A DNA stretch of 64,000 nucleotides from a virus (IMGVR_UViG_3300021405_000009:34240-98239), one strand, 5' to 3'. Shown: positions 4,281 through 55,158, counted from the first letter of the stretch. A program made the numbers and translations. Notes: generated by a model not told the origin, from the sequence alone.

Positions 4281-4376
4281 TCGCGGACAAGGGATGCGGC
4301 TGGAATTTGCAGGAGTCGAACCTGCGACGCTTTTTGAGCGTTTCATCAGGATAACCAGCTCACTTCGGCCCGCGAA
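4281..4376 (-). ncRNA. Y-RNA-like (Yrl) RNA, remote copy carrying a T-arm
   Basis: Minus strand: TCGCG-GGCCGAA-GTGAGCTG-GTTATC-...-GCAGG TTCGACT CCTGC-...-CCAGCCGC-ATCC-CTTGTC-CGCGA; same scaffold as the 53.6-54.3 kb array. Confidence 0.8.
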
Positions 4377-23014: not shown

Positions 23015-23653
23015 TCACCGGGACAACTTACGCCTAACCAAGCCCGCGATGGCCAGCAAACCGGTCCCCATCGTGACCAGGGTCCCCGGCTCTGGCGTCA
23101 CCGTCCCAAGGAAGCGCTCGCTATTCATGTTAATCTGGCCCACGCCCGTGGTACCGCATAGATCGCCACTGCCATAGAACCCTGAGTTCACGCCGCACAC
23201 CCCCAGGCTGTCCAGGTTCAAAGATTCACTAAAGCTTCCAGAGACGAGATAGACGGCGAACGCCTGCGTGTGACCAGGCAGCCGGACAAATTCCTCGCCG
23301 GTAAACGTGCCCGAGAAAATCCCGGTGCTCGGGTTGTATATCGTGCTGGTCATGGTGAACACCGGCTGGCCGAAGGCGGACTTGTAGCCCATGGAGTAAG
23401 CTTCAGGGCCGAACGGCGCGTTCAGGAAAATGTGGTTGGCGCTCAGGTTGGCGCTGCCGCCAGCGAATGCCGCCCCAATGCCAACGCCCTGACCGCCCGG
23501 CCCAATCGAGCCTTCCAGTTCGACAAAGGTGCCAGAGCTTAACGTGATGGAAGTGATGGGACTGGGCAGGTCGCGCATCGAAGAGCCGACCATCTTCTGT
23601 GGAGTTACCGCCAGCGTCAAGAAAAGCAAAGCCAGAACAGAGTAGGTTCTCAT
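23015..23653 (-). CDS. PEP-CTERM exosortase-target surface protein
   Basis: Signal peptide MRTYSVLALLFLTLAVT; C-terminal VTPEPGTLVTMGTGLLAIAGLVRRKLSR (PEP motif, TM helix, basic tail). Confidence 0.85.
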   Translation of the reverse strand: MRTYSVLALLFLTLAVTPQKMVGSSMRDLPSPITSITLSSGTFVELEGSIGPGGQGVGIGAAFAGGSANLSANHIFLNAPFGPEAYSMGYKSAFGQPVFTMTSTIYNPSTGIFSGTFTGEEFVRLPGHTQAFAVYLVSGSFSESLNLDSLGVCGVNSGFYGSGDLCGTTGVGQINMNSERFLGTVTPEPGTLVTMGTGLLAIAGLVRRKLSR

Positions 23654-26127
23654 GTTGAGTTTCCCCCGGCAGCTCTTATACCACAAAAACCAGGCCCGGA
23701 AGGGAGCTTCCGAGCCTGGAGCGAAGAAGTAAAGCCGCCAACTCTTCCCCTCTAGTTGCGGTTACGCCCCGCGTTAGAGTTCTCATTGTCCTCGCCTTCG
23801 AGGTCGATCTTGGTGCAGGTGTAGGGCAGGTTGGTTCCGGGGCTCAGCGTGACCGCTTCGATCGACCCCACCGGAGTCCAGGACTTGATCGAATGGCCCT
23901 CGGCAGCCACCACAATCGCGGACTGTCCGCCGCGCTGCACCAGGAAGGTTCCGTGCTCGCCCCGCAGGGTCAAAGCAACGTCGTAGGTTTGGACGGGCTG
24001 GTTGAACTTCATCATATTTCCTCTTTTCCGGCTCCCCTACATTCGCGATCTTCCCGCTTCACTGCCTGTGATGTCAAGTGATAATATTCCGTGCATGAAC
24101 GAAGAAAATCGTCCCAACTTAAATGCGGTCGGATTGCTCACTGACATCCTGCAGGCCATCGACAAGCGGCGGCGCGGCAAGGCTGGCGGCGCGCCCATGG
24201 CAGAGCTGATGGGCCTGGTGTCGGAGGACGTGAAGAAATTCGTGGAGCTGATCGACTCGCTGCTGGATGACCGCTTCGGCGACTCGCACGACATCGTCAT
24301 CCGCAATCCGGCCGACAGTGAGATGTTGTTTATGGTCGCAGCCACCAACAAATTCTTCGAGGATGCGATGAACAGCATAGTCGCTCCCGCTACGCGAGCC
24401 TGGACTGATTACAAAGTCCAGAAGGTGGAGCAGATCATCGTGAAGCCCGGCGACATCGAAGAGAATGAAGCGCGCTTCACCGTGGTGTTGCACGCCAAGC
24501 GGAGGAACACGTGAACAAAGAAGCAGTCGCGGCCTCCTGGTTGAAATTGCTTAAGTCTTGGCAGGCGCTGGCGTTGATGTCAGCCGAGCACATCGCAAAC
24601 TGCGATATCTGCATCGCGGCGGGATTGTTTCTAGGCAGCTATTGCAGCGTCGGCAACGCGGCATGGGCGGAACTAAAGGCGATGGAACTGCGCGTCACTG
24701 CCATCCTGCCAGAGTTGCGCGCGGCCGGGATTGACGTGGACCAGGCGATCCAACTCATCGCAGACGGAGCAGCGATAAAATGACGCCCACACGGAAGGAC
24801 GTGTTTAATCAGTTCTTGGAGCTGAACGAACTACAGCGCAACGCATTCTTCGCGCAGCTCATGATGTGGACCGATCTCAATCTGCCAGACGGCACATTCA
24901 TGGTCATCACGAAGGACCAGTACCGGCGCGCCACCCAGGGCGTCATGATCCCGGAAATTCCAGAGCTGTACGAAGTAGCGAAGCAGGTGATGCACTCCTT
25001 CGGTCTGACCTACACGCATCCTGTAACCGGCAAGAAATTCCCGCCGCCAAGGAAGAGGAAAAAATAATGAGACACGGTGTAGTAGCTGCAGCTCTCCTGT
25101 TAGCCCCCATCCTGCTGGGCGTGCCCCTGCAACCTGGCGATCTGGTGGACGGCAAGGTTGAACTGATCCCCGTCGAAGACGCGAAGACGTTCCAGCTCGC
25201 CATCCGTGTGGCCAAGGGCGTGGACGCGGATCAGGCCGTCGTCACCATCCACTACAAGGCCGACGTGCCACAGCTCGGCGAACTGTGGCTGACCAAGACT
25301 TCCGTCGTGGACGTTATTCCCGACGTGGCCGTCATGGCCGATGGCGTTCCGGTCCCGCGCGAGAGAGTGCAGCGCATCGAAGTGACGCTGGTGAAGAACG
25401 TGGAGTCGCACACCTTCCAGATGGCGGAGAAGAAGTGATGCTCGGCCCGCAGTTCTGGAAGGGCTTTTTCTTCGGCGCGATCTGGGGCCTGGTCGTTGGC
25501 GGATTCCTAACCTGGTTCTGGTTGATGCTGAAGCACGGCAGGCGGCTATGAAACCAGAAGGAGAAATAGGGCGCGAGCTGAAGGCGTCGGAACTCAAGCC
25601 GGGCACAGTCGTGATCGTCGCGCCTTCATGTCATCCACGCGCAATGCTGAGTGTGTGGGTGAAGGCCGTGGATTCGAAGCTGGTCGTGTTCTACGCTGGG
25701 GAACTGAATCTGCACATTATCAACTTCGTCCAACCGGATGGCTCGATTCAGGATGACCATGGAACGGTCGTCCGGGTGTACGAGTACCTGGGGCAAGCAT
25801 GACAGAGGAGATACACAAACTGCGCGACATGGCACCAGAAGATGCGCAACGCGAGTTCCGTGGACTGATCGTCCACCTCGGCATCGTAACCGAGCAGCAG
25901 GCGGCGGCCGTGACCTTCACGCGCGTCAATCCCGCCGATCATCCGGAGATCCCGCGTTGCACCTGTGAAAGCTGCAAGAATGACACGTCGTTCATGGCGT
26001 TCGGTATCGACCAGGAAAAGCTGTCGCCGATTCAATTTAAGCTCATCGTGGCGACCTACAACAAATACGCCGGACCATTTATTCCAGCATCCGCTGATCC
26101 TTCCGAGTGGACAAGGAAGAAGCCGCA

Positions 26128-31604: not shown

Positions 31605-32401
31605 CACAGTCGATACCTCATCTCCCAGTGGCGGCGATACGCGTCGGCAATCACGCGCGAGACGAAGTTGCGATCGATCTCCGGCTGCAGCGGCGAGCTG
31701 GCTTCGGCCGCACGGCAAATCTCCGAGCGCTCGGTCGCATTGCGGATGACCCAATCCTCCGTGTACTCGCCGTTGCGAATAGCGATCAACAGATCTTTCT
31801 GCGGAGAGGGTAGCGTGATGATCCCGCTGCGCATCAGTTCTTCGCACTCGATCAGCAGCCGGATGATGTGCATGGCGAACTTGGTGTCGTAGCCGTACTT
31901 CGCGACCAGGTCGGGCCGATTCACGTTGCGGCTACGCTCGCCCGTCATGCGCATCAACTGCGCGGTCGCGAAGCCCAGGAATTGTTTGTAGTGCTTCCGG
32001 CACAGGAACTGCAGACGATATTTCTCGACGGCATGGAACCAGGTGTCGAACGCACCGGCTGGCACCGGCAGCGCATTCTTCGCGAAGATGGCGTGCAGGA
32101 TGCTGGGGTTCCCCTTGCAGGCCAGGTGCGCCCATTTCTGCAGCCCGTAGAGCGTGATGTCGATGTCGCTGGAATCGTTCTTGCGTTCATTCGTGCTGGT
32201 GGACCAGACGAAGTGTTCATAGCTATCGACGCCGATGATTTTTTCTGGCGGCTCGACGTAGACGCCATAGATGTCGAGATCGTCATAGCCGGAGACTTTC
32301 GCCCCGTGCAGGGCGGAGCCACCCACGAACAGGTGGATGATCTCCGTCCAGTACGGGAACTTCGCTGCCTTCACGTGGTCGAGCAGTGCGCTATCGACCA
32401 T
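31604..32401 (-). CDS. RlaP-like DNA polymerase beta superfamily nucleotidyltransferase
   Basis: GGSALHG...DDLDIYGVY, DITLY, KGNPS, GYDTKFAMHIIRL motifs of the YcgL/RlaP family. Confidence 0.8.
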   Translation of the reverse strand: MVDSALLDHVKAAKFPYWTEIIHLFVGGSALHGAKVSGYDDLDIYGVYVEPPEKIIGVDSYEHFVWSTSTNERKNDSSDIDITLYGLQKWAHLACKGNPSILHAIFAKNALPVPAGAFDTWFHAVEKYRLQFLCRKHYKQFLGFATAQLMRMTGERSRNVNRPDLVAKYGYDTKFAMHIIRLLIECEELMRSGIITLPSPQKDLLIAIRNGEYTEDWVIRNATERSEICRAAEASSPLQPEIDRNFVSRVIADAYRRHWEMRYRL

Positions 32402-33047
32402 TGCCGTTCCCGTTCTCCAGCAGCAGCATCACGCGCTCTACGCCGATGGCGAAGCCGAAGCCCCGATCGTAGGGACCTCCGGCGCACACCTGCTTCTGGG
32501 CTCCCAGTTGGTCGCAGTTAATTTCAAAACCGTCGCCGGTGTAGTAGGCGTAGCGGGGTTTGACGGCGGTGTTGAGGTTGAATTTTTTAGTGAAGACGGT
32601 CATCATCCGCGTGGCTAACTCGATGAAGAGTTCGCGCTGAGCGTCGGGATTGGTCGGGTTTAGAATCTCGACGCCGAACTGCGTGAACTCATGATACCTG
32701 CCCATCTGGGGCCGTTCATTACGCCAGCATTTCGTGATATAGAACACTCTCACGTCGCGGCGAGCCTTCCAGAGCGTGCTGGCAATCAGTCTGCATGTGA
32801 TGGTTCCTTCCGGCCGCAGACAGATACTTCTGGCAGTGGACGGCTCCGGGAATGAATACATGTGACGAAGCGCTTCTTCCTCGCCCTGGTACAGCTCGGT
32901 CAGATCGAGGATGGGGAGTTGGATTTCGCGCGCCCCGAAAACTTCGGCGATGGGGGTGAGTGTATTGCATATTCTGCGGTACCTCTCGGCGTGTTCGTAT
33001 ACCAAAACGCGCGTGCCGCGCGGCGCAAGCTTCAGATGTAAGTCCAC
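32391..33047 (-). CDS. Minimal histidyl-tRNA-synthetase-like protein (class II catalytic core only)
   Basis: PRGT, motif 1 (EIQLPIL), LRPEGT, motif 2 WRNERPQMGRYHEFTQFGVE, YYTG, GGPYD, motif 3 GFAIGVER; only 218 aa, no anticodon-binding domain. Confidence 0.85.
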   Translation of the reverse strand: MDLHLKLAPRGTRVLVYEHAERYRRICNTLTPIAEVFGAREIQLPILDLTELYQGEEEALRHMYSFPEPSTARSICLRPEGTITCRLIASTLWKARRDVRVFYITKCWRNERPQMGRYHEFTQFGVEILNPTNPDAQRELFIELATRMMTVFTKKFNLNTAVKPRYAYYTGDGFEINCDQLGAQKQVCAGGPYDRGFGFAIGVERVMLLLENGNGNGR

Positions 33048-41164: not shown

Positions 41165-41572
41165 TCATTTCTTTCTTCCTCTCAGTTGCCGGTCGAGTCC
41201 AACCAGCAGTTCGGAGTTCACGTTGATGACTTGCTCCTCGACCGTGTCTCCGGCTGGGTCCGGGCCTTTGATGGCGTCGCGCATCCCGCACATCTGAACG
41301 TGCAACAGCTCATGCACGATGGTGGACTCAATCTCGTCGCGACCGTCTTCGTCGGCGTAGTCGTCGGGATGAAGGATCAGGATGGTGGCCCGCAGGTGGT
41401 TGTCGTTCAACATGCAGCGCCCCCAGGAGATGGTCCCATCGTCCGGGATCAGCATCTCGCGCGAGCGGGCGTAGCGAATCTTGATGTGCCATTGCTGCAG
41501 GCGAAGCAACTTCTGCCAGCGCTCCAACAGGCGGCGCAGGTCCGCTTCGCTCGGGGGTGACGTTTTCTGCAT
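41165..41572 (-). CDS. Zincin-type metallopeptidase-like protein
   Basis: ESTIVHELLHV (HExxH) with a downstream EE. Confidence 0.65.
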   Translation of the reverse strand: MQKTSPPSEADLRRLLERWQKLLRLQQWHIKIRYARSREMLIPDDGTISWGRCMLNDNHLRATILILHPDDYADEDGRDEIESTIVHELLHVQMCGMRDAIKGPDPAGDTVEEQVINVNSELLVGLDRQLRGRKK

Positions 41573-41578
41573 GTAAAG

Positions 41579-41640
41579 ATTATACCAGATACCGTGGACA
41601 GAATGCAAGCTTGCAACAGATGCCAATGATCTGGTATAAT
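41579..41640. promoter_or_regulatory. Back-to-back divergent promoters
   Basis: Plus: TTGCAA-18-TATAAT (41611-41640); minus: TTGCAT-18-TATAAT (41608-41579); centred on the palindrome TGCAAGCTTGCA. Confidence 0.75.
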
Positions 41641-41647
41641 ATTTGCA

Positions 41648-42403
41648 GTGGAGAACTCGATGCACGAAGCAGGAACCCCCGAACAGATCACCGCACTATA
41701 CGCAGCTCTCAGCCTGGCCCAGGCGGAATTCCCCAAGATCGAAAAGACCAAGAGCGCCTACAACTACAAGTACGCCCCCATGGACGAGATCGAACTCAAG
41801 ATCCGTCCCGTCCTCATCAAGCACGGCCTGGCCGTCTTCCACCCCATCAACCACGTCGGCGAGAGTGGCAAGCAAGCCGTGGGAGCGCTCATCGTCCATG
41901 CGCTGGGCGGCCGGTTCTGGTGCGATGGGCTCATCATCCAGGAAAGCGCCAAGCCGCAGGACCAGGGCGGGCATATCACTTACGGCCGACGCTATGTCTA
42001 TTGCTCCATGCTCGGCATCACCTCGCAGGACGACGACGAGTCAGTCCTTGCGAAAAGCCCTCGTCGCAGCACCGTGACGAGGCGGGACGGCGTAGCTCAA
42101 GATGGTCGAGCGCCGATCGCTGGACGTAGTTCGGTGCCCCCAGCGCCAGTCGGAGATTCCGGTTCGATTCCGGACCCGTCCCTACCCACTAAACAAGAGC
42201 GCATTGAGTATGTCGCGCGCCTGGGCAACTACCGCAAACAGGTCACCGACGATGCGCTGCGGGCATTCCTTCTGCGCGAGTCGGGCGCATCCGAGACGCG
42301 GCTGATCGCGAAGAAAGACTGGCTCAAGCTACTCACGCAACTCGACGACGCCCTGGCGAAGGGCAAGCTTCTGGAGGCCGTCAGTGAAAATTTCAACCGC
42401 TAG
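41648..42403 (+). CDS. ERF-family single-strand annealing protein
   Basis: ALSLAQAEF...YKYAPMDEI...KHGL...PQDQGGHITYGRRYVYCSMLGI..DDDE. Confidence 0.85.
   Translation: MENSMHEAGTPEQITALYAALSLAQAEFPKIEKTKSAYNYKYAPMDEIELKIRPVLIKHGLAVFHPINHVGESGKQAVGALIVHALGGRFWCDGLIIQESAKPQDQGGHITYGRRYVYCSMLGITSQDDDESVLAKSPRRSTVTRRDGVAQDGRAPIAGRSSVPPAPVGDSGSIPDPSLPTKQERIEYVARLGNYRKQVTDDALRAFLLRESGASETRLIAKKDWLKLLTQLDDALAKGKLLEAVSENFNR
42084..42182 (+). other. tRNA-like cloverleaf embedded in-frame in the ERF gene
   Basis: GGGACGG(C)G-TA-GCTC AAGATGGTC GAGC-G-CCGAT[31-nt insert with CGCTGG/CCAGCG stem]GTCGG-AGAT-TCCGG TTCGATT CCGGA-CCCGTCCC. Confidence 0.7.
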
Positions 42404-43154
42404 CAAGATGGGCCGTCGCACCTACCAGGAAGATCGCTATGTCGTCCATCACACCGGCGCTGGCGTTCTCCTGGCCGTCATGGACGGGCACGGCGGTGAA
42501 GATGTCGCCGATGTATGCAAGGACTACGTCGGCCACTTCTTCGATTTAACACTCGTCCCTTTAGACAATGGCGACCCGCGCGCATTTGACAAGGCGCTGG
42601 CACTGACCATCTGGGAACTCAACTGCATCACGAACGAGTATCACTCCGGCTGCACCATCTCGCTAGCCTTTATACCGAAGAGTGAGGACAAGGTCTTCAT
42701 CGCCACCCTGGGTGACTCGCCGGTCATTGTCCGATCGCCAAGTGGAGTTACCTGGATATCTGAAAGCCACAACGCGCGCACCAACCTCGAAGAGCGCGAA
42801 GCGGCCGAGAAGCGTGGCGGCATCTACCACGGCGGTTATATCTGGTGCGCGCCACACGGGCTCTATCCCATGGGCGACAGCGGCCGTGGCCTGCAGATGA
42901 CCCGCAGCCTCGGCGACACCGAGATGGGGCCGGTAATCTCCCGCGATCCCCAGATCGAGATTCACGCGCTGGGAAAGTTTGTCCTCGTGGCCACCGATGG
43001 ATGCTTCGATCCCGGCCATGAGAATGAATCGCAGGCCGTAGCCGACGTGATCGCCCTCATCGACCAAGGCGGAGACGCCAAAGCCATCGTCGATCGCGCC
43101 GTCCAACTTCCCACCGAAGACAACGCAACCGCAGTCTTACTAACCAAGGAGTAA
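42384..43154 (+). CDS. PP2C-family protein phosphatase
   Basis: GRRTYQEDR, VMDGHGG, SGCT, LGDS, GLQMTRSLGD, LVATDG, EDNAT. Confidence 0.85.
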   Translation: MKISTASKMGRRTYQEDRYVVHHTGAGVLLAVMDGHGGEDVADVCKDYVGHFFDLTLVPLDNGDPRAFDKALALTIWELNCITNEYHSGCTISLAFIPKSEDKVFIATLGDSPVIVRSPSGVTWISESHNARTNLEEREAAEKRGGIYHGGYIWCAPHGLYPMGDSGRGLQMTRSLGDTEMGPVISRDPQIEIHALGKFVLVATDGCFDPGHENESQAVADVIALIDQGGDAKAIVDRAVQLPTEDNATAVLLTKE

Positions 43155-51720: not shown

Positions 51721-53313
51721 ATGCGATATCTCATTCACCGCGCAGTAGCGATCGGTAACCCGCCCCAGAGTCAGCCGCTGAACGACCGTCAGTCGAAAAA
51801 CAGCGCTGGCGGTTACAGTTTCACTCTGGATAAGTGGGGCAAGCTCGACCGTTTTCTCATCCTAGGCAGCGAAGGTGGCAGTTACTATGCCAGCGAGCAG
51901 AAGCTTACCGAGGAGAATGCCACCAATCTGGCAGCGTGTGTGAAGGAAGATGGCATTAAGGTGGTCAAGCGCATCGTCGAGATCAGCGATGCGGGCCGGG
52001 CTCCGAAGAACGACCCGGCGCTGTTCGCTCTGGCTTACGCCTCGGCGAAGGGCGACGACGACACGCGTAGTGCGGCTCTGGCTGCACTGCCCAAGGTCGC
52101 ACGCATCGGCACGCATCTGTTCCACTTCACCGCCTTCGTCAACACCATGCGAGGCTGGGGCCGTGGACTGCGGAAGGCCGTAGGTAACTGGTATGCCCAA
52201 GCTGGCGAAGAAGATTGGGATCGCCTGGCCGAGCAGGTCACAAAGTACCAACAGCGTGAGGGCTGGAGCCACCGCGATCTACTGCGCCTGGCGCACCCCA
52301 AGCCGACCTGCCGTCCGCACCAGGCAATCGCTAAGTGGGTAGTCAAGGGCGGAGAGTTGAACCAGACCGCGCCCGAGAAGTTGGTGGGCCACGTTGAACT
52401 GCAAGAGGCCACGACGCCGAAGCAGGCCGTGAAGCTCATCACCAAGTACGGGCTCGTGCGCGAGTCCGTGCCCACTGAACTGCTGAAGTCTCCTGAGGTA
52501 TGGGAGGCCCTGCTCGCGCGGATGCCCATGACGGCGATGATTCGCAACCTGGGCAACCTGTCGAAGTGCGGGTTGCTGACTCCATTGAGCGAAGCCTCGA
52601 AGATGGTAGTCGAGCGGCTGAGCGAGGAAGCGCTGCTGAAGAAGGCGCGCGTACATCCGATTCAACTCTTGATCGCGCAAAAGACTTACGGCTCCGGCCA
52701 TGGCAACAAAGGCAAAGGCGAATGGACGCCCGTGCCCCAGGTAGTTGACGCATTAGACGGCGCTTTCTACTCAGCCTTCCAGAACATTATCCCGTCAGGC
52801 AAGCGCTTCTACCTGGGGCTCGATGTGTCGGGCTCGATGTCCTGCGGCGAAGTAGCCGGAGTCAACGACTTCACGCCTCGCGAGGCATCGTCCGCCATGG
52901 CCATGGTCACGGCGCGCAGCGAGCAGAACTACTACGTCGCTGGCTTCCAGGAGCGCATGATCCAGCTCATGATTACGCCGAAGTCGCGGCTCGATCAGAT
53001 CTGCTCTGCTACGGCGAAGCTGCCGTTCGGCTCTACCGATTGCGCCCAGCCCATGCTGGACGCGCTGGCAAAGAAGTTGCCGGTGGACGTGTTCGCGATC
53101 TACACCGACTCCGAGACCTGGAGTGGAACAACGCACCCAACCGTGGCCCTGGAGCGCTACCGCCAGCAGACTGGCATCCCGGCGAAGTTGATTGTCGTCG
53201 GCATGGTGGCCAATCCGTTCACGATCGCCGATCCGAACGATGCTGGCATGTTGGACGTGGTCGGATTCGATTCAGCGACGCCGCAGATCATCTCACAGTT
53301 CGCGGAGGCGTAG
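51721..53313 (+). CDS. rsr: Ro60/Rsr TROVE-domain RNA-binding protein
   Basis: NSAGGY, RFLILGSEGGSYY, GRAPKNDPALFAL, GWGRGLRKAV, KYQQREGWSHRDLLRLAHP, MPMTAMIRNL, RVHP, vWA DVSGSM, TDSETW, DAGMLDVVGFD. Confidence 0.95.
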   Translation: MRYLIHRAVAIGNPPQSQPLNDRQSKNSAGGYSFTLDKWGKLDRFLILGSEGGSYYASEQKLTEENATNLAACVKEDGIKVVKRIVEISDAGRAPKNDPALFALAYASAKGDDDTRSAALAALPKVARIGTHLFHFTAFVNTMRGWGRGLRKAVGNWYAQAGEEDWDRLAEQVTKYQQREGWSHRDLLRLAHPKPTCRPHQAIAKWVVKGGELNQTAPEKLVGHVELQEATTPKQAVKLITKYGLVRESVPTELLKSPEVWEALLARMPMTAMIRNLGNLSKCGLLTPLSEASKMVVERLSEEALLKKARVHPIQLLIAQKTYGSGHGNKGKGEWTPVPQVVDALDGAFYSAFQNIIPSGKRFYLGLDVSGSMSCGEVAGVNDFTPREASSAMAMVTARSEQNYYVAGFQERMIQLMITPKSRLDQICSATAKLPFGSTDCAQPMLDALAKKLPVDVFAIYTDSETWSGTTHPTVALERYRQQTGIPAKLIVVGMVANPFTIADPNDAGMLDVVGFDSATPQIISQFAEA

Positions 53314-53523
53314 ATGCAGGTGCAGATCCCGCAGGTCACGCTCGAAGACACCAAGGGGTTCGCCGAGGCGTGGAATAAGTCGAGGCCCATCGTGGTGATC
53401 TTCGATCCGCACGACCTGGCGTTCGCCCAAGCATTCGCGAACTTCGCAGTGCAACGAGTTTTCGCTGGCCTCATCGCGCAACAGGAAGCAGAAGCGAAGA
53501 GGCTGACGGTTGTGGAACCATAG
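53314..53523 (+). CDS. Small hypothetical protein between Ro60 and the RNA array
   Basis: ATG abuts the Ro60 stop; 69 aa. Confidence 0.55.
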   Translation: MQVQIPQVTLEDTKGFAEAWNKSRPIVVIFDPHDLAFAQAFANFAVQRVFAGLIAQQEAEAKRLTVVEP

Positions 53524-53578
53524 CTCCAGTACGAGAGGAGAACAACTATAGGAATACGCACAGGCTAACACACGCAAC

Positions 53579-53648
53579 TGACGGGCCGATAGCAGATCGT
53601 TATCATATGCTTGAAAAACAATTACGGTCTGCGACAACTTGTCCGTCA
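53579..53648 (+). ncRNA. Y-RNA-like unit A (short)
   Basis: TGACG-GGCCGAT-A-GCAGATC-GTTATC-loop-CGGTCTGC-GACAA-CTTGTC-CGTCA. Confidence 0.75.
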
Positions 53649-53657
53649 CCTACTTAC

Positions 53658-53729
53658 ACCGTTGGGCCGCAGTTGGTTCGTTACCTACATTGATTGGAAT
53701 ATACGGACCGACACATTTTGTCTAACGGT
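53658..53729 (+). ncRNA. Y-RNA-like unit B (short)
   Basis: ACCGTTG-GGCCGCA-GTTGGTTC-GTTACC-loop-CGGACCGAC-ACAT-TTTGTC-TAACGGT. Confidence 0.7.
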
Positions 53730-53737
53730 AAATATAT

Positions 53738-53878
53738 GCGAGGGCCGAAGAGAATTGGTTATCCTCCACCTAAGCCGTACCGGGGGAGTAGCTCAATGGT
53801 AGAGCGCCGGACCTGATCAATCCGGAGGTTGCTGGTTCAAGTCCAGTCTCCATACCGATTCTCGTACCTTGTCTTCGC
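53738..53878 (+). ncRNA. Y-RNA-like unit C enclosing a non-permuted tRNA-like fold
   Basis: GCGAG-GGCCGAA-GAGAATTG-GTTATC...[D arm GCTC/GAGC, anticodon arm CCGGA/TCCGG, T arm GCTGG TTCAAGT CCAGT]...CCGATTCTC-GTAC-CTTGTC-TTCGC. Confidence 0.85.
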
Positions 53879-53887
53879 TTCATTTCT

Positions 53888-53952
53888 GCGAGGGTCGAAG
53901 TCGGTCTGTTATCACAATGCAAACAGAGACGGACCGCGTAACTTATCTTCGC
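53888..53952 (+). ncRNA. Y-RNA-like unit D (short)
   Basis: GCGAG-GGTCGAA-GTCGGTCT-GTTATC-loop-CGGACCGC-GTAA-CTTATC-TTCGC. Confidence 0.8.
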
Positions 53953-53971
53953 TTCATGTTTCACTTGTAAG

Positions 53972-54110
53972 TGCGAGGGCCGAAGCTAGCTGGTTATCTT
54001 GGAACTCTATGTCGTTGGTTCGATTCCAACCGTCCTGGTTCTCCAGGCGTAGTTCAGTGGTAGAACAAGAGTGGCGAAAGCCATTTCCGGCTACATCACT
54101 TGTCTTCGCA
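53972..54110 (+). ncRNA. YrlA-type Y RNA unit E (circularly permuted tRNA mimic)
   Basis: Scaffold plus ACTCT..T arm GTTGG TTCGATT CCAAC, closed acceptor CCTGG-ttct-CCAGG, D arm GTTC AGTGGTA GAAC, AGAGT, and an extra TGGC-GAAA-GCCA hairpin. Confidence 0.9.
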
Positions 54111-54158
54111 TGAAATCCCTGGCCGGGTACTATCTGAGGCATCCGGCCAGTAAAACAG

Positions 54159-54303
54159 AAAGAGAGCGGGCCGAAAGCTGGTTGGTTATCTACTGCTAAT
54201 AGAGAGGTCGCGGGTTCGAGTCCCGCTGGCACCTTCGGGTGCTATAGCTCAGTTGGCTAGAGCGCTAAAACACCGATTGGCATAGAACTTGTCCGCTCTC
54301 TTT
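54159..54303 (+). ncRNA. YrlA-type Y RNA unit F (permuted tRNA mimic retaining an anticodon hairpin)
   Basis: AAAGAGAGCG-GGCCGAA..GTTATC; TCTA CTGCTAA TAGA; T arm GCGGG TTCGAGT CCCGC; acceptor TGGCACC TTCG GGTGCTA; D arm GCTC AGTTGGCTA GAGC; CTTGTC-CGCTCTCTTT followed by a T-tract. Confidence 0.9.
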
Positions 54304-54342
54304 TTATTTTACCTCTAACGGTCAGCGTCAGGTGTTTCTCTT

Positions 54343-55158
54343 ATGCCAACTCTCTGCTTTGTCGGCGACGTGCATGGAAACTTAACGCAGATGTACGCCG
54401 CTCTGATGGCGTGGATGGAGCGTAGTTACACTAAGATCGATGCCGTCGTTCAGGTTGGCGATCTCGGCGTATACCGCCGTGGTACCACCTGGTCTTCCAT
54501 GTTCTTCAAGGGCGTGCCCTCGCCGATCCCGACCTGGGCCTGCATGGGCAACCATGAAGATCCGCTCGCGATCCGCGACTGGCAGAACGAGCCCGACCGA
54601 ATTCCTAACATGCACCTGATGCCGGATGGCGAGATCACCAGCGTTCTCGGCGTCCAGATCGGCGTTGTGTGGGGCAACTACAGCCCGATTAGTTGGCTTG
54701 ATCCTGGCCGTGTACACAAGGCGCGCGCTGTGGGCGGCGAGTCCGCGCGGATCGCTATGCACATCGACCACGCTGCTGTTACCCGCCTGATGGATTTATA
54801 CCAGCGCTGCGGCGATCACATGGATGTGCTAGTCACGCATGACTCTGCGGCGTCCACACTGCCGGTACAGTTTCGCGGCAAGGGCATGGACTCCTTCATC
54901 AAAGGGCAGCTCGGCCTTACTGATAACGAAGAGTCTGGCGGCTGCCACGGCTTCAACTCGCTGCTCAAGGCATTTCAGCCCGATGAATATTTCTTTGGCC
55001 ACCTGCACTGTTATGACGAAGGCATGATTGGCCGCACGCATTACACCTGCCTGAACGCGATCGGCTACGAAGGTGGCCCGTGGTTCAAGGTGATGGAGTT
55101 CCCAGACGTGGCGGGGCCGCTGTCTGGGGGTATCAACATTCTCGGGGGAGGTTCTTAA
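54343..55158 (+). CDS. Calcineurin-like metallophosphoesterase
   Basis: GDVHG, VGDLG, GNHE, THD, GHLH motifs. Confidence 0.9.
   Translation: MPTLCFVGDVHGNLTQMYAALMAWMERSYTKIDAVVQVGDLGVYRRGTTWSSMFFKGVPSPIPTWACMGNHEDPLAIRDWQNEPDRIPNMHLMPDGEITSVLGVQIGVVWGNYSPISWLDPGRVHKARAVGGESARIAMHIDHAAVTRLMDLYQRCGDHMDVLVTHDSAASTLPVQFRGKGMDSFIKGQLGLTDNEESGGCHGFNSLLKAFQPDEYFFGHLHCYDEGMIGRTHYTCLNAIGYEGGPWFKVMEFPDVAGPLSGGINILGGGS

Follow-up and report, generated by a model that had tools for sequence, protein, structure and literature searches.

A tRNA-like element in frame within the hinge of a phage ERF gene: probably a protein linker and a tRNA mimic in one stretch

Introduction

Mimics of tRNA are known as stand-alone RNAs, e.g., the Y RNAs and tmRNA, at the 3' termini of plant viral genomes, and in non-coding transcripts, where they act as processing signals. 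A phage gene for an ERF single-strand annealing protein raises the question whether such a mimic can also be maintained in frame within a translated gene, where the same nucleotides have to specify a peptide and, if so, which enzymes would read its shape. In the literature, no report was found of a tRNA mimic kept in frame inside a translated phage gene. The window analysed here, a DNA stretch of 64,000 nucleotides, corresponds to bases 34240-98239 of a 98-kb virus record of IMG/VR, about 77% complete. As far as the comparison of homologous sequences allows us to judge, positions 42084-42183 of this window probably represent a protein linker and a tRNA mimic in one and the same stretch.

The ERF Gene and Its Surroundings

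The open reading frame located at 41648..42403 on the plus strand encodes an ERF single-strand annealing protein consisting of an N-terminal ERF core, a disordered hinge and a helical C-terminal domain. It matches PF04404 over residues 18-131 with 62.9 bits, against a cut-off of 25 (4.3e-17), and the Erf-like family PHROG 2324 (8.7e-30), which identifies the ERF core. The start codon used by ERF homologs corresponds to the ATG at 41660, and the linker peptide quoted in the first-pass annotation is indeed the translation of this reading frame. Just 5' of the gene, a sigma-70-like promoter match (41611..41640, +) shows 10 of the 12 hexamer positions together with a TG, as a match to the consensus only; from this match, the tRNA-like element would begin about 440 nt into the transcript. 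Downstream of ERF, the gene order comprises a PP2C phosphatase, an SSB, a PD-(D/E)XK nuclease, a DUF1376 protein and a DnaB helicase. The PP2C-family phosphatase (42384-43154, +) is located between ERF and SSB, its start sharing 20 nt with the end of ERF, and represents an unusual member for a phage recombination module. Elsewhere in the window, a 222-aa reading frame (23015-23686, -) shows at its C-terminus a weak PEP-CTERM sorting motif (E=1.4e-4), which may hint at the host group.

In the AlphaFold2 model, the pLDDT falls below 50 at residues 128-174 and the element covers residues 145-178. The element is thus predicted to lie almost wholly within a disordered hinge, which separates the ERF core from a C-domain specific to the family. 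Fifteen full-length relatives sharing 46-91% identity keep a single frame across the segment, followed by the conserved helical C-domain. No split forms of the family occur among shorter proteins and, among 1.84 billion representative proteins, the C-domain is found nowhere else. The idea that two genes fused on either side of a tRNA gene was discarded on these two grounds, i.e., the lack of split forms and a C-domain confined to this ERF family.

Anatomy of the tRNA-Like Element

The element (42084..42183, +), delineated by ARAGORN and by a covariance model, R1, comprises 100 nt (p1-p100) read in frame in the ERF hinge. The 5' strand of the acceptor stem (42084..42092, +) consists of G1-G7, a bulged C8 and G9, and pairs with 42175-42182. 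The resulting stem of 8 bp with one bulge associates G1-G7 with C93-C99 and G9 with C92, C8 being unpaired. The same 5' strand occurs in L084, the homologous locus from which DNA is available. The two following nucleotides, U10 and A11, fill the canonical positions U8 and A9 and lead to a D arm (42095..42111, +) made of a 4-bp stem (p12-15 with p25-28) and a 9-nt loop which contains GG, A14 and R15. The anticodon arm is replaced by a long variable arm (42113..42153, +) built up from a 5-bp base, a 3-nt bulge, a 6-bp stem and an apical hairpin, devoid of any conserved 7-nt loop: the 5-bp stem (p30-34 with p66-70) encloses 31 nt (p35-65), including the 6-bp stem (p35-40 with p57-62). A variable loop of 4 nt is followed by a T arm (42158..42174, +) with a 5-bp stem, the loop UUCGAUU and the G53-C61 pair, and the element ends with the 3' strand of the acceptor stem (42175..42183, +), composed of the 8 nt C92-C99 plus the next base, U100. 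Every part of the cloverleaf listed in the first-pass annotation was recovered at its place.

All of the tertiary nucleotides universal in tRNA are readable in the element, namely U8, A14, R15, G18, G19, Y48, G53, T54, Psi55, C56, R57, A58 and C61. The acceptor stem, the D arm with its GG and the T-Psi-C loop thus make up the body of a tRNA, but the acceptor contains 8 bp and a bulge instead of the usual 7 bp.

With respect to folding, the cloverleaf with the long arm, calculated with the tRNA body enforced (-42.3 kcal/mol), comes within 0.6 of the minimum free energy calculated for the element of the window (-42.9 kcal/mol). The z-scores of the folding energy are weak (-1.46 for the element of the window and for that of L084; -2.25 and +0.33 in a 220-nt context), and the minimum free energy fold of the wider context does not retain the cloverleaf. 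RNAalifold prefers a type-II-like interior pairing (30-51 and neighbours), accompanied by two compensatory changes. In the window and in L084 alike, this pairing is less stable than the long arm by 5-6 kcal/mol, and the long-arm model is favoured because of its better energy in both sequences and of the changes found at pairs 30-70 and 34-66.

Detection, Chance and Known RNA Families

ARAGORN identifies the stretch 42084-42183 as a 100-nt tRNA-Ser(GGA). No call was obtained in 2000 shuffles of the element nor in the reversed window, and shuffling of synonymous codons in the ERF gene kept the call in 2 of 2000 cases. When 106 ERF loci (545 kb) were scanned, the single call fell on the homologous site of L084, at the same codon position, with none in the other 105. 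Chance is ruled out as the source of the tRNA-like element, since the element shuffles, the synonymous-codon shuffles and the scan of the ERF loci yield no or almost no calls. The covariance model R1 scores 124.6 bits in the window and 117.1 bits in L084, and matches none of the 98 other ERF loci scanned. The element is therefore absent from the distant ERF loci examined with either tool (0 calls in 105, 0 matches in 98). It is also single-copy in the 98-kb genome, which rules out a repeated or mobile element.

The Rfam tRNA family (RF00005, gathering threshold 29 bits) gives no match at E<=1, nor at E<=10 when the search is restricted to the small region. The best Rfam match is tRNA-Sec (RF01852), with 20.5 bits and E=0.06 against a gathering score of 47. 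Apart from the 8+5 geometry of acceptor and T stems, nothing in the element fits a tRNA-Sec: UCA is missing, and the D arm has 4 bp and a 9-nt loop instead of 6 bp and 4 nt. A Y RNA of the YrlA type was similarly rejected, taking into account the lack of a RF02553 match at the element, its normal tRNA order, its distance of 9.5 kb from the Ro60 gene, and the absence of a Ro-binding motif.

A decoding tRNA possesses an anticodon arm with a 5-bp stem, a 7-nt loop and a conserved anticodon, a combination which the element does not offer. The anticodon stem proposed by ARAGORN consists mostly of G.U pairs and mismatches: in the window, a single pair is of the Watson-Crick type, and the stem of L084 contains two mismatches. 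The label, Ser-GGA in the window, becomes Ala-GGC in L084. With such a poor stem and a label that differs between homologs, tRNA-Ser and tRNA-Ala were both discarded: the element cannot decode.

The first-pass annotation had also considered an intron-like pre-tRNA on which a ligase could act. This proposal does not hold, as no 7-nt anticodon loop can be derived and the middle of the element, which varies from 5 to 16 codons, is unconserved; moreover, ARAGORN run with introns allowed (-i) returns the same call. Excision followed by religation would remove 100 or 97 nt, both of which are 1 mod 3, and would shift ERF into a non-conserved tail. Religation is therefore unlikely, since the window and L084 would each lose a length of 1 mod 3 and the new frame is unconserved.

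Taken as a whole, it appears extremely improbable that the element truly functions in decoding, be it as tRNA-Ser(GGA), as tRNA-Sec or as a pre-tRNA with an intron, or that it is an attachment site which the phage copied from a tRNA of its host. Such readings would account for the ARAGORN label, the weak tRNA-Sec match and the 8+5 acceptor/T geometry. Against them stand the unconserved middle, the failure of label and stem in L084, the lack of UCA and of a Sec-like D arm, and an excision that breaks the frame, whereas an attachment site is at odds with the conservation of both halves rather than of the 3' half alone. No integrase was found among the reading frames scanned.

Selection on the RNA Shape

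The comparison relies on the DNA of L084 (75% protein identity) and, for the other relatives, on nucleotides deduced by partial back-translation, i.e., codon positions 1 and 2. Further DNA from close homologs was sought in viral contigs (with protein patterns and with a 22-nt pattern covering the T arm and the acceptor strand), in metagenome and genome contigs, and in GenBank phages (tblastn); these searches yielded, besides L084, only distant ERFs of at most 39% identity.

Two peptide blocks of the hinge, RRDGVAQDGRAP and GDSGSIPDPSLP, are as conserved as the ERF core. The former extends over the 5' strand of the acceptor and the D arm and the latter over the T arm and the 3' strand of the acceptor, while the residues between them vary freely and differ by whole codons. 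At the nucleotide level, the two longest identical runs between the window and L084, over 2424 aligned nucleotides of 72% identity, are 42160-42189 (30 nt) and 42078-42106 (29 nt), the next one measuring 21 nt. The 36 nt that separate these two runs are scrambled and contain a 3-nt indel. Only two changes distinguish the body of the element in the two sequences: a CGA to AGA replacement, which restores the canonical A21 in L084, and a C76 to U transition, by which a G.U pair is kept in the T arm despite a Ser to Phe substitution.

Synonymous differences between the window and L084 affect 1 of the 21 body codons versus 45 of 162 elsewhere (Fisher P=0.029). The suppression of synonymous variation that the first-pass annotation proposed to look for in ERF homologs is thus borne out, on the DNA of L084 only. 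In addition, the body codons have a GC3 of 50%, compared with 78% for the remaining codons of ERF (P=0.007). They also include codons which the phage avoids, such as GTA, CGA, CTA and GGA (Mann-Whitney P=0.0003).

Base pairing points in the same direction. In 12 back-translated homologs, forced double changes that still pair number 6 versus 1.0 expected, and forced stem breaks number 8 versus 15.8 expected (P~0.0004 in both cases, under a permutation null in which the 5' and 3' blocks are re-paired among homologs, a test that relatedness inflates). Half of the double changes (3/6) come from a single divergent protein, P0013, in which the back-translated pairs 4-96, 7-93 and 75-91 are altered on both sides with pairing kept. 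Depending on the homolog, the pair 12-28 reads G-C, G.U (P0005) or A-U (P0006) in back-translation, and the pair 34-66 changes from U.G to U-A in P0050. The pair 30-70, usually C-G, becomes A-U in P0007 and P0008 through a coupled Pro-to-Thr and Gly-to-Val replacement involving residues 13 positions apart. Close variants, taken within 90% clusters, differ in the flanks, in the middle, or by U.G to U-A and G-C to G.U replacements. The 5' end is less uniform, G1 being back-translated as A in three homologs and as C in one.

Could these hinge blocks instead be short linear protein motifs, e.g., docking sites for SSB or for the exonuclease, the tRNA shape being incidental? Their conservation, equal to that of the ERF core, and the AlphaFold2 pLDDT, which climbs at the end of the second block, would agree with such a role. 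However, codon choice matters, as illustrated by the 2 of 2000 synonymous shuffles in which the call survives, and radical substitutions are tolerated where the RNA allows them: amino-acid changes cluster in the D loop, where Asp is replaced by Val, Thr or Pro, Ile by Ser or Thr on position 59 of the T loop, which is variable in tRNAs generally, and Ser by Phe in the T arm. The coupled replacement that turns a C-G into an A-U pair is equally difficult to attribute to the peptide. We consider this explanation improbable.

Another explanation, to which we attach very little probability, would be a stable mRNA fold of a generic kind that makes ribosomes pause between the two domains and so helps the N-terminal ring domain to fold or assemble. 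The position of the element, exactly at the boundary between the domains, and its folding energy of -42.9 kcal/mol in the window speak for it. Pausing has no need of a T loop, of the GG of the D loop, of U8/A14 or of G53-C61, yet all of them are conserved, and the most stable part of the structure, the long arm, is the least conserved one.

It is well supported by these comparisons that the nucleotide sequence and the base pairs of the element are selected beyond the needs of the protein. The dual-coding element proposed by the first-pass annotation stands in this respect, with a stretch translated in frame in all members of the family, a conserved C-domain downstream and a tRNA-body shape that is constrained at the nucleotide level; "another tRNA mimic", one of the terms used there, is a fair description.

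Age, Erosion and Origin

Back-translation indicates that the element is eroded in P0006 and P0013 and mostly lost in P0012 and P0014, and that individual stem pairs no longer form in P0004, P0007, P0009 and P0017. In a neighbor-joining tree without support values, P0012 is nested among members with an intact element. Judging from these sequences, the element is old in the ERF family, has been repeatedly lost and is dispensable for ERF: its age follows from its presence in relatives whose protein identity is as low as about 47-55%, and its dispensability from the erosion or loss in these four proteins together with the broken pairs. The suggestion that a tRNA gene was "recently" exapted as linker is accordingly not supported with regard to its date. 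An origin from a known phage tRNA was not retained either, since blastn matches the T arm only. In P0004, known from its protein sequence, about 13 codons that cover the 3' strand of the acceptor and the beginning of the C-domain are duplicated in tandem; two alternative 3' acceptor strands would result in the RNA.

Such erosion leads to consider that a tRNA gene was captured long ago in the hinge and persists as a linker peptide only, its shape fading and its RNA function gone. The loss or erosion in 4 of the 15 relatives and the scattered broken pairs in others, the missing anticodon loop, the lack of a match to the Rfam tRNA family, and the rare codons, which could reflect a foreign origin, are all in line with a relic. 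A fading relic is less easily reconciled with synonymous change suppressed exactly in the two halves around a scrambled middle, with compensatory changes above the permutations, with a pair kept through a nonsynonymous Ser-to-Phe substitution, and with the maintenance of the element down to about 55% protein identity. We regard it as unlikely, without being negligible.

Possible Recognition by tRNA Enzymes

It is an even bet, in our opinion, that the structure in the ERF hinge acts via anticodon-independent tRNA enzymes, foremost RNase P. Recognition by such enzymes is the most likely because only the parts that they read are conserved: the acceptor/T stack and the D/T elbow would serve as their recognition surface, the anticodon arm being replaced by a hairpin whose sequence and length vary freely within the limits of the reading frame. 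RNase P would cut at the 5' end of the element, at 42083/42084, and processing of the tRNA type would generate a 3' end near 42182/42183. These cuts would set free a stable RNA, tRNA-shaped and about 100 nt long, and would sever the ERF message about 440 nt into the transcript of the recombination/replication operon. Ribosomes translating the hinge would unfold the element, so that cutting would compete with translation.

The tRNA-like module of YrlA from M. smegmatis, with a 7-bp acceptor stem, offers an analogy, as it is a substrate of RNase P both in vitro and in vivo, to which CCA is added after cleavage (PMC4201824). The geometry of RNase P substrates set out in the same work, i.e., acceptor and T stems stacked coaxially, 7 bp or more in the acceptor and an intact D/T elbow, is present in the element. 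By its sequence and by this analogy, the ERF message would most likely be processed by RNase P and 3'-end enzymes. Against such processing, there is no obvious benefit in cutting the phage's own recombinase mRNA, and the bulged C8 and the bases past the acceptor stem, where no CCA is encoded, are not ideal for a bacterial RNase P.

The tRNA-Directed Proteins of the Phage

According to its gene content, the phage invests heavily in tRNA-shaped RNAs and in RNA repair. A mini-HisRS of 217 aa (32391-33047, -) retains the catalytic core of HisRS, with motif 2, the R..YY motif of the histidine site and motif 3, without the insertion and anticodon-binding domains. Its relatives of about 210 aa form several mostly viral clusters with hundreds of members in the ESM Atlas, where they are automatically named HisZ or HisRS family; a search of viral contigs with exact peptide patterns gave no match. 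Directly 3' of this gene and overlapping it by 11 nt, RlaP (PF10127; 31604-32401, -) is a nucleotidyltransferase of RNA repair, and this arrangement suggests that both genes belong to one operon. RlaP extends the 3' ends of RNA by one or two nucleotides (bioRxiv 10.64898/2025.12.29.696909). An RNA ligase of the DRB0094 type, which associates a PHA02142 OB fold with PF09414 (39900-40997, -), is located 650 bp upstream of ERF in the divergent orientation, and a 166-aa reading frame without family match (41165-41665, -) occupies the interval.

Further downstream, the Rsr/Ro60 gene (51721-53313, +; TROVE and vWA domains, 576 bits for NCBIfam Rsr) opens a locus at 51721-55158 (+) that also contains, 3' of Rsr/Ro60, a tRNA-Ile(GAT) at 53782-53856 (+) and two below-threshold matches to YrlA (RF02553) at 53987-54096 and 54182-54299. 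A metallophosphoesterase follows the YrlA-like RNAs in the same locus. The window contains five T-arm motifs, for 0.34 expected; the fifth of them, GGTTCGACTCC, lies at 4312-4322 (-), far from the Ro60 locus.

In this context, the element could be a ligand of the mini-HisRS, RlaP, the RNA ligase or Ro60, to be bound, charged or repaired, e.g., as a histidine-type acceptor or as a decoy against host tRNA-targeting nucleases, nucleolytic processing not being the point. In tRNA-His, the G-1:C73 arrangement is what HisRS mainly reads, with little help from the anticodon. The 3' strand of the element, in the window and in L084, consists of 8 nt ending in a C opposite G1, as in the arrangement of tRNA-His, yet its 5' strand carries the bulged C8. 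A partnership with the mini-HisRS is conceivable on account of this 3' strand, and the occurrence in the same phage of a mini-HisRS deprived of an anticodon-binding domain, of RlaP, an RNA ligase, Ro60 with YrlA-like RNAs and a phosphoesterase, as well as the excess of T-arm motifs, argue in the same sense. Conversely, the hundreds of mostly viral mini-HisRS far outnumber an ERF family of about 15 members, the first G is replaced in four homologs and the 5' strand has one base in excess, and neither a Ro-binding motif nor a YrlA match occurs at the element. We regard a function as ligand as unlikely, although not negligible.

A scenario combining processing and binding, in which we place little confidence, would have RNase P free the element, RlaP or a CCA-adding enzyme make its 3' end, and the mini-HisRS charge or bind it via the histidine-type 8-bp acceptor, the product being a decoy, a sensor or a cofactor against host defences that cleave tRNAs. 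If true, a DNA phage would possess a protein-coding segment from which an aminoacylatable tRNA mimic is also made.

Significance and Comparison with Known Systems

Should RNase P and 3'-end enzymes process the RNA, as the preferred reading would have it, the ERF hinge would provide a clean natural case of one stretch selected both as a peptide and as a structured RNA, for which a disordered hinge would be a permissive host. The element adds to the picture of the use of tRNA-shaped RNAs by phages equipped with Ro60, Y RNAs and RNA-repair genes, and may be linked to the unexplained and widespread family of phage mini-HisRS. From a practical standpoint, the tRNA-Ser label given by ARAGORN at this site would mislead phage annotation.

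The closest parallel within the same phage is provided by YrlA (RF02553), of which two likely relatives accompany its Ro60. Both YrlA and the ERF element are non-decoding mimics of the tRNA body, with an acceptor-like stem, a D arm and a T arm. However, YrlA is a stand-alone RNA, circularly permuted, with a capped "acceptor" and a terminal Ro-binding helix, whereas the ERF element displays the normal tRNA order, an open acceptor and a capped long arm, inside a translated reading frame.

Several tRNA-like substrates of RNase P are released from longer transcripts, such as the mascRNA of MALAT1, the C4 RNAs of P1 and P7, the CI RNA of P4, and the mitochondrial transcripts punctuated by tRNAs. 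In these systems, as in the ERF message, a tRNA-shaped fold is embedded in a longer RNA, and theirs recruits the end-processing enzymes and defines the RNA ends. They differ by their location in non-coding or intergenic RNA, whereas the ERF element is read in frame by ribosomes and its processing is inferred only.

With regard to type II tRNAs and tRNA-Sec, the resemblance lies in the length of about 100 nt, the long extra arm and the 8+5 acceptor/T stems of bacterial tRNA-Sec; in contrast, the ERF element is devoid of a conserved anticodon stem-loop and of UCA, its D stem does not reach 6 bp, and its scores stay below the Rfam thresholds.

Finally, the tRNA-like structures located at the 3' ends of plant RNA viruses accept valine, histidine or tyrosine. 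Like the ERF element, which would be recognised in a similar way, they are viral tRNA mimics read through the acceptor/T half, and one class among them accepts histidine. These structures are 3'-terminal, possess a pseudoknotted acceptor and belong to RNA viruses of eukaryotes, whereas the element of the ERF hinge is internal, adopts the layout of a true cloverleaf and belongs to a DNA phage.
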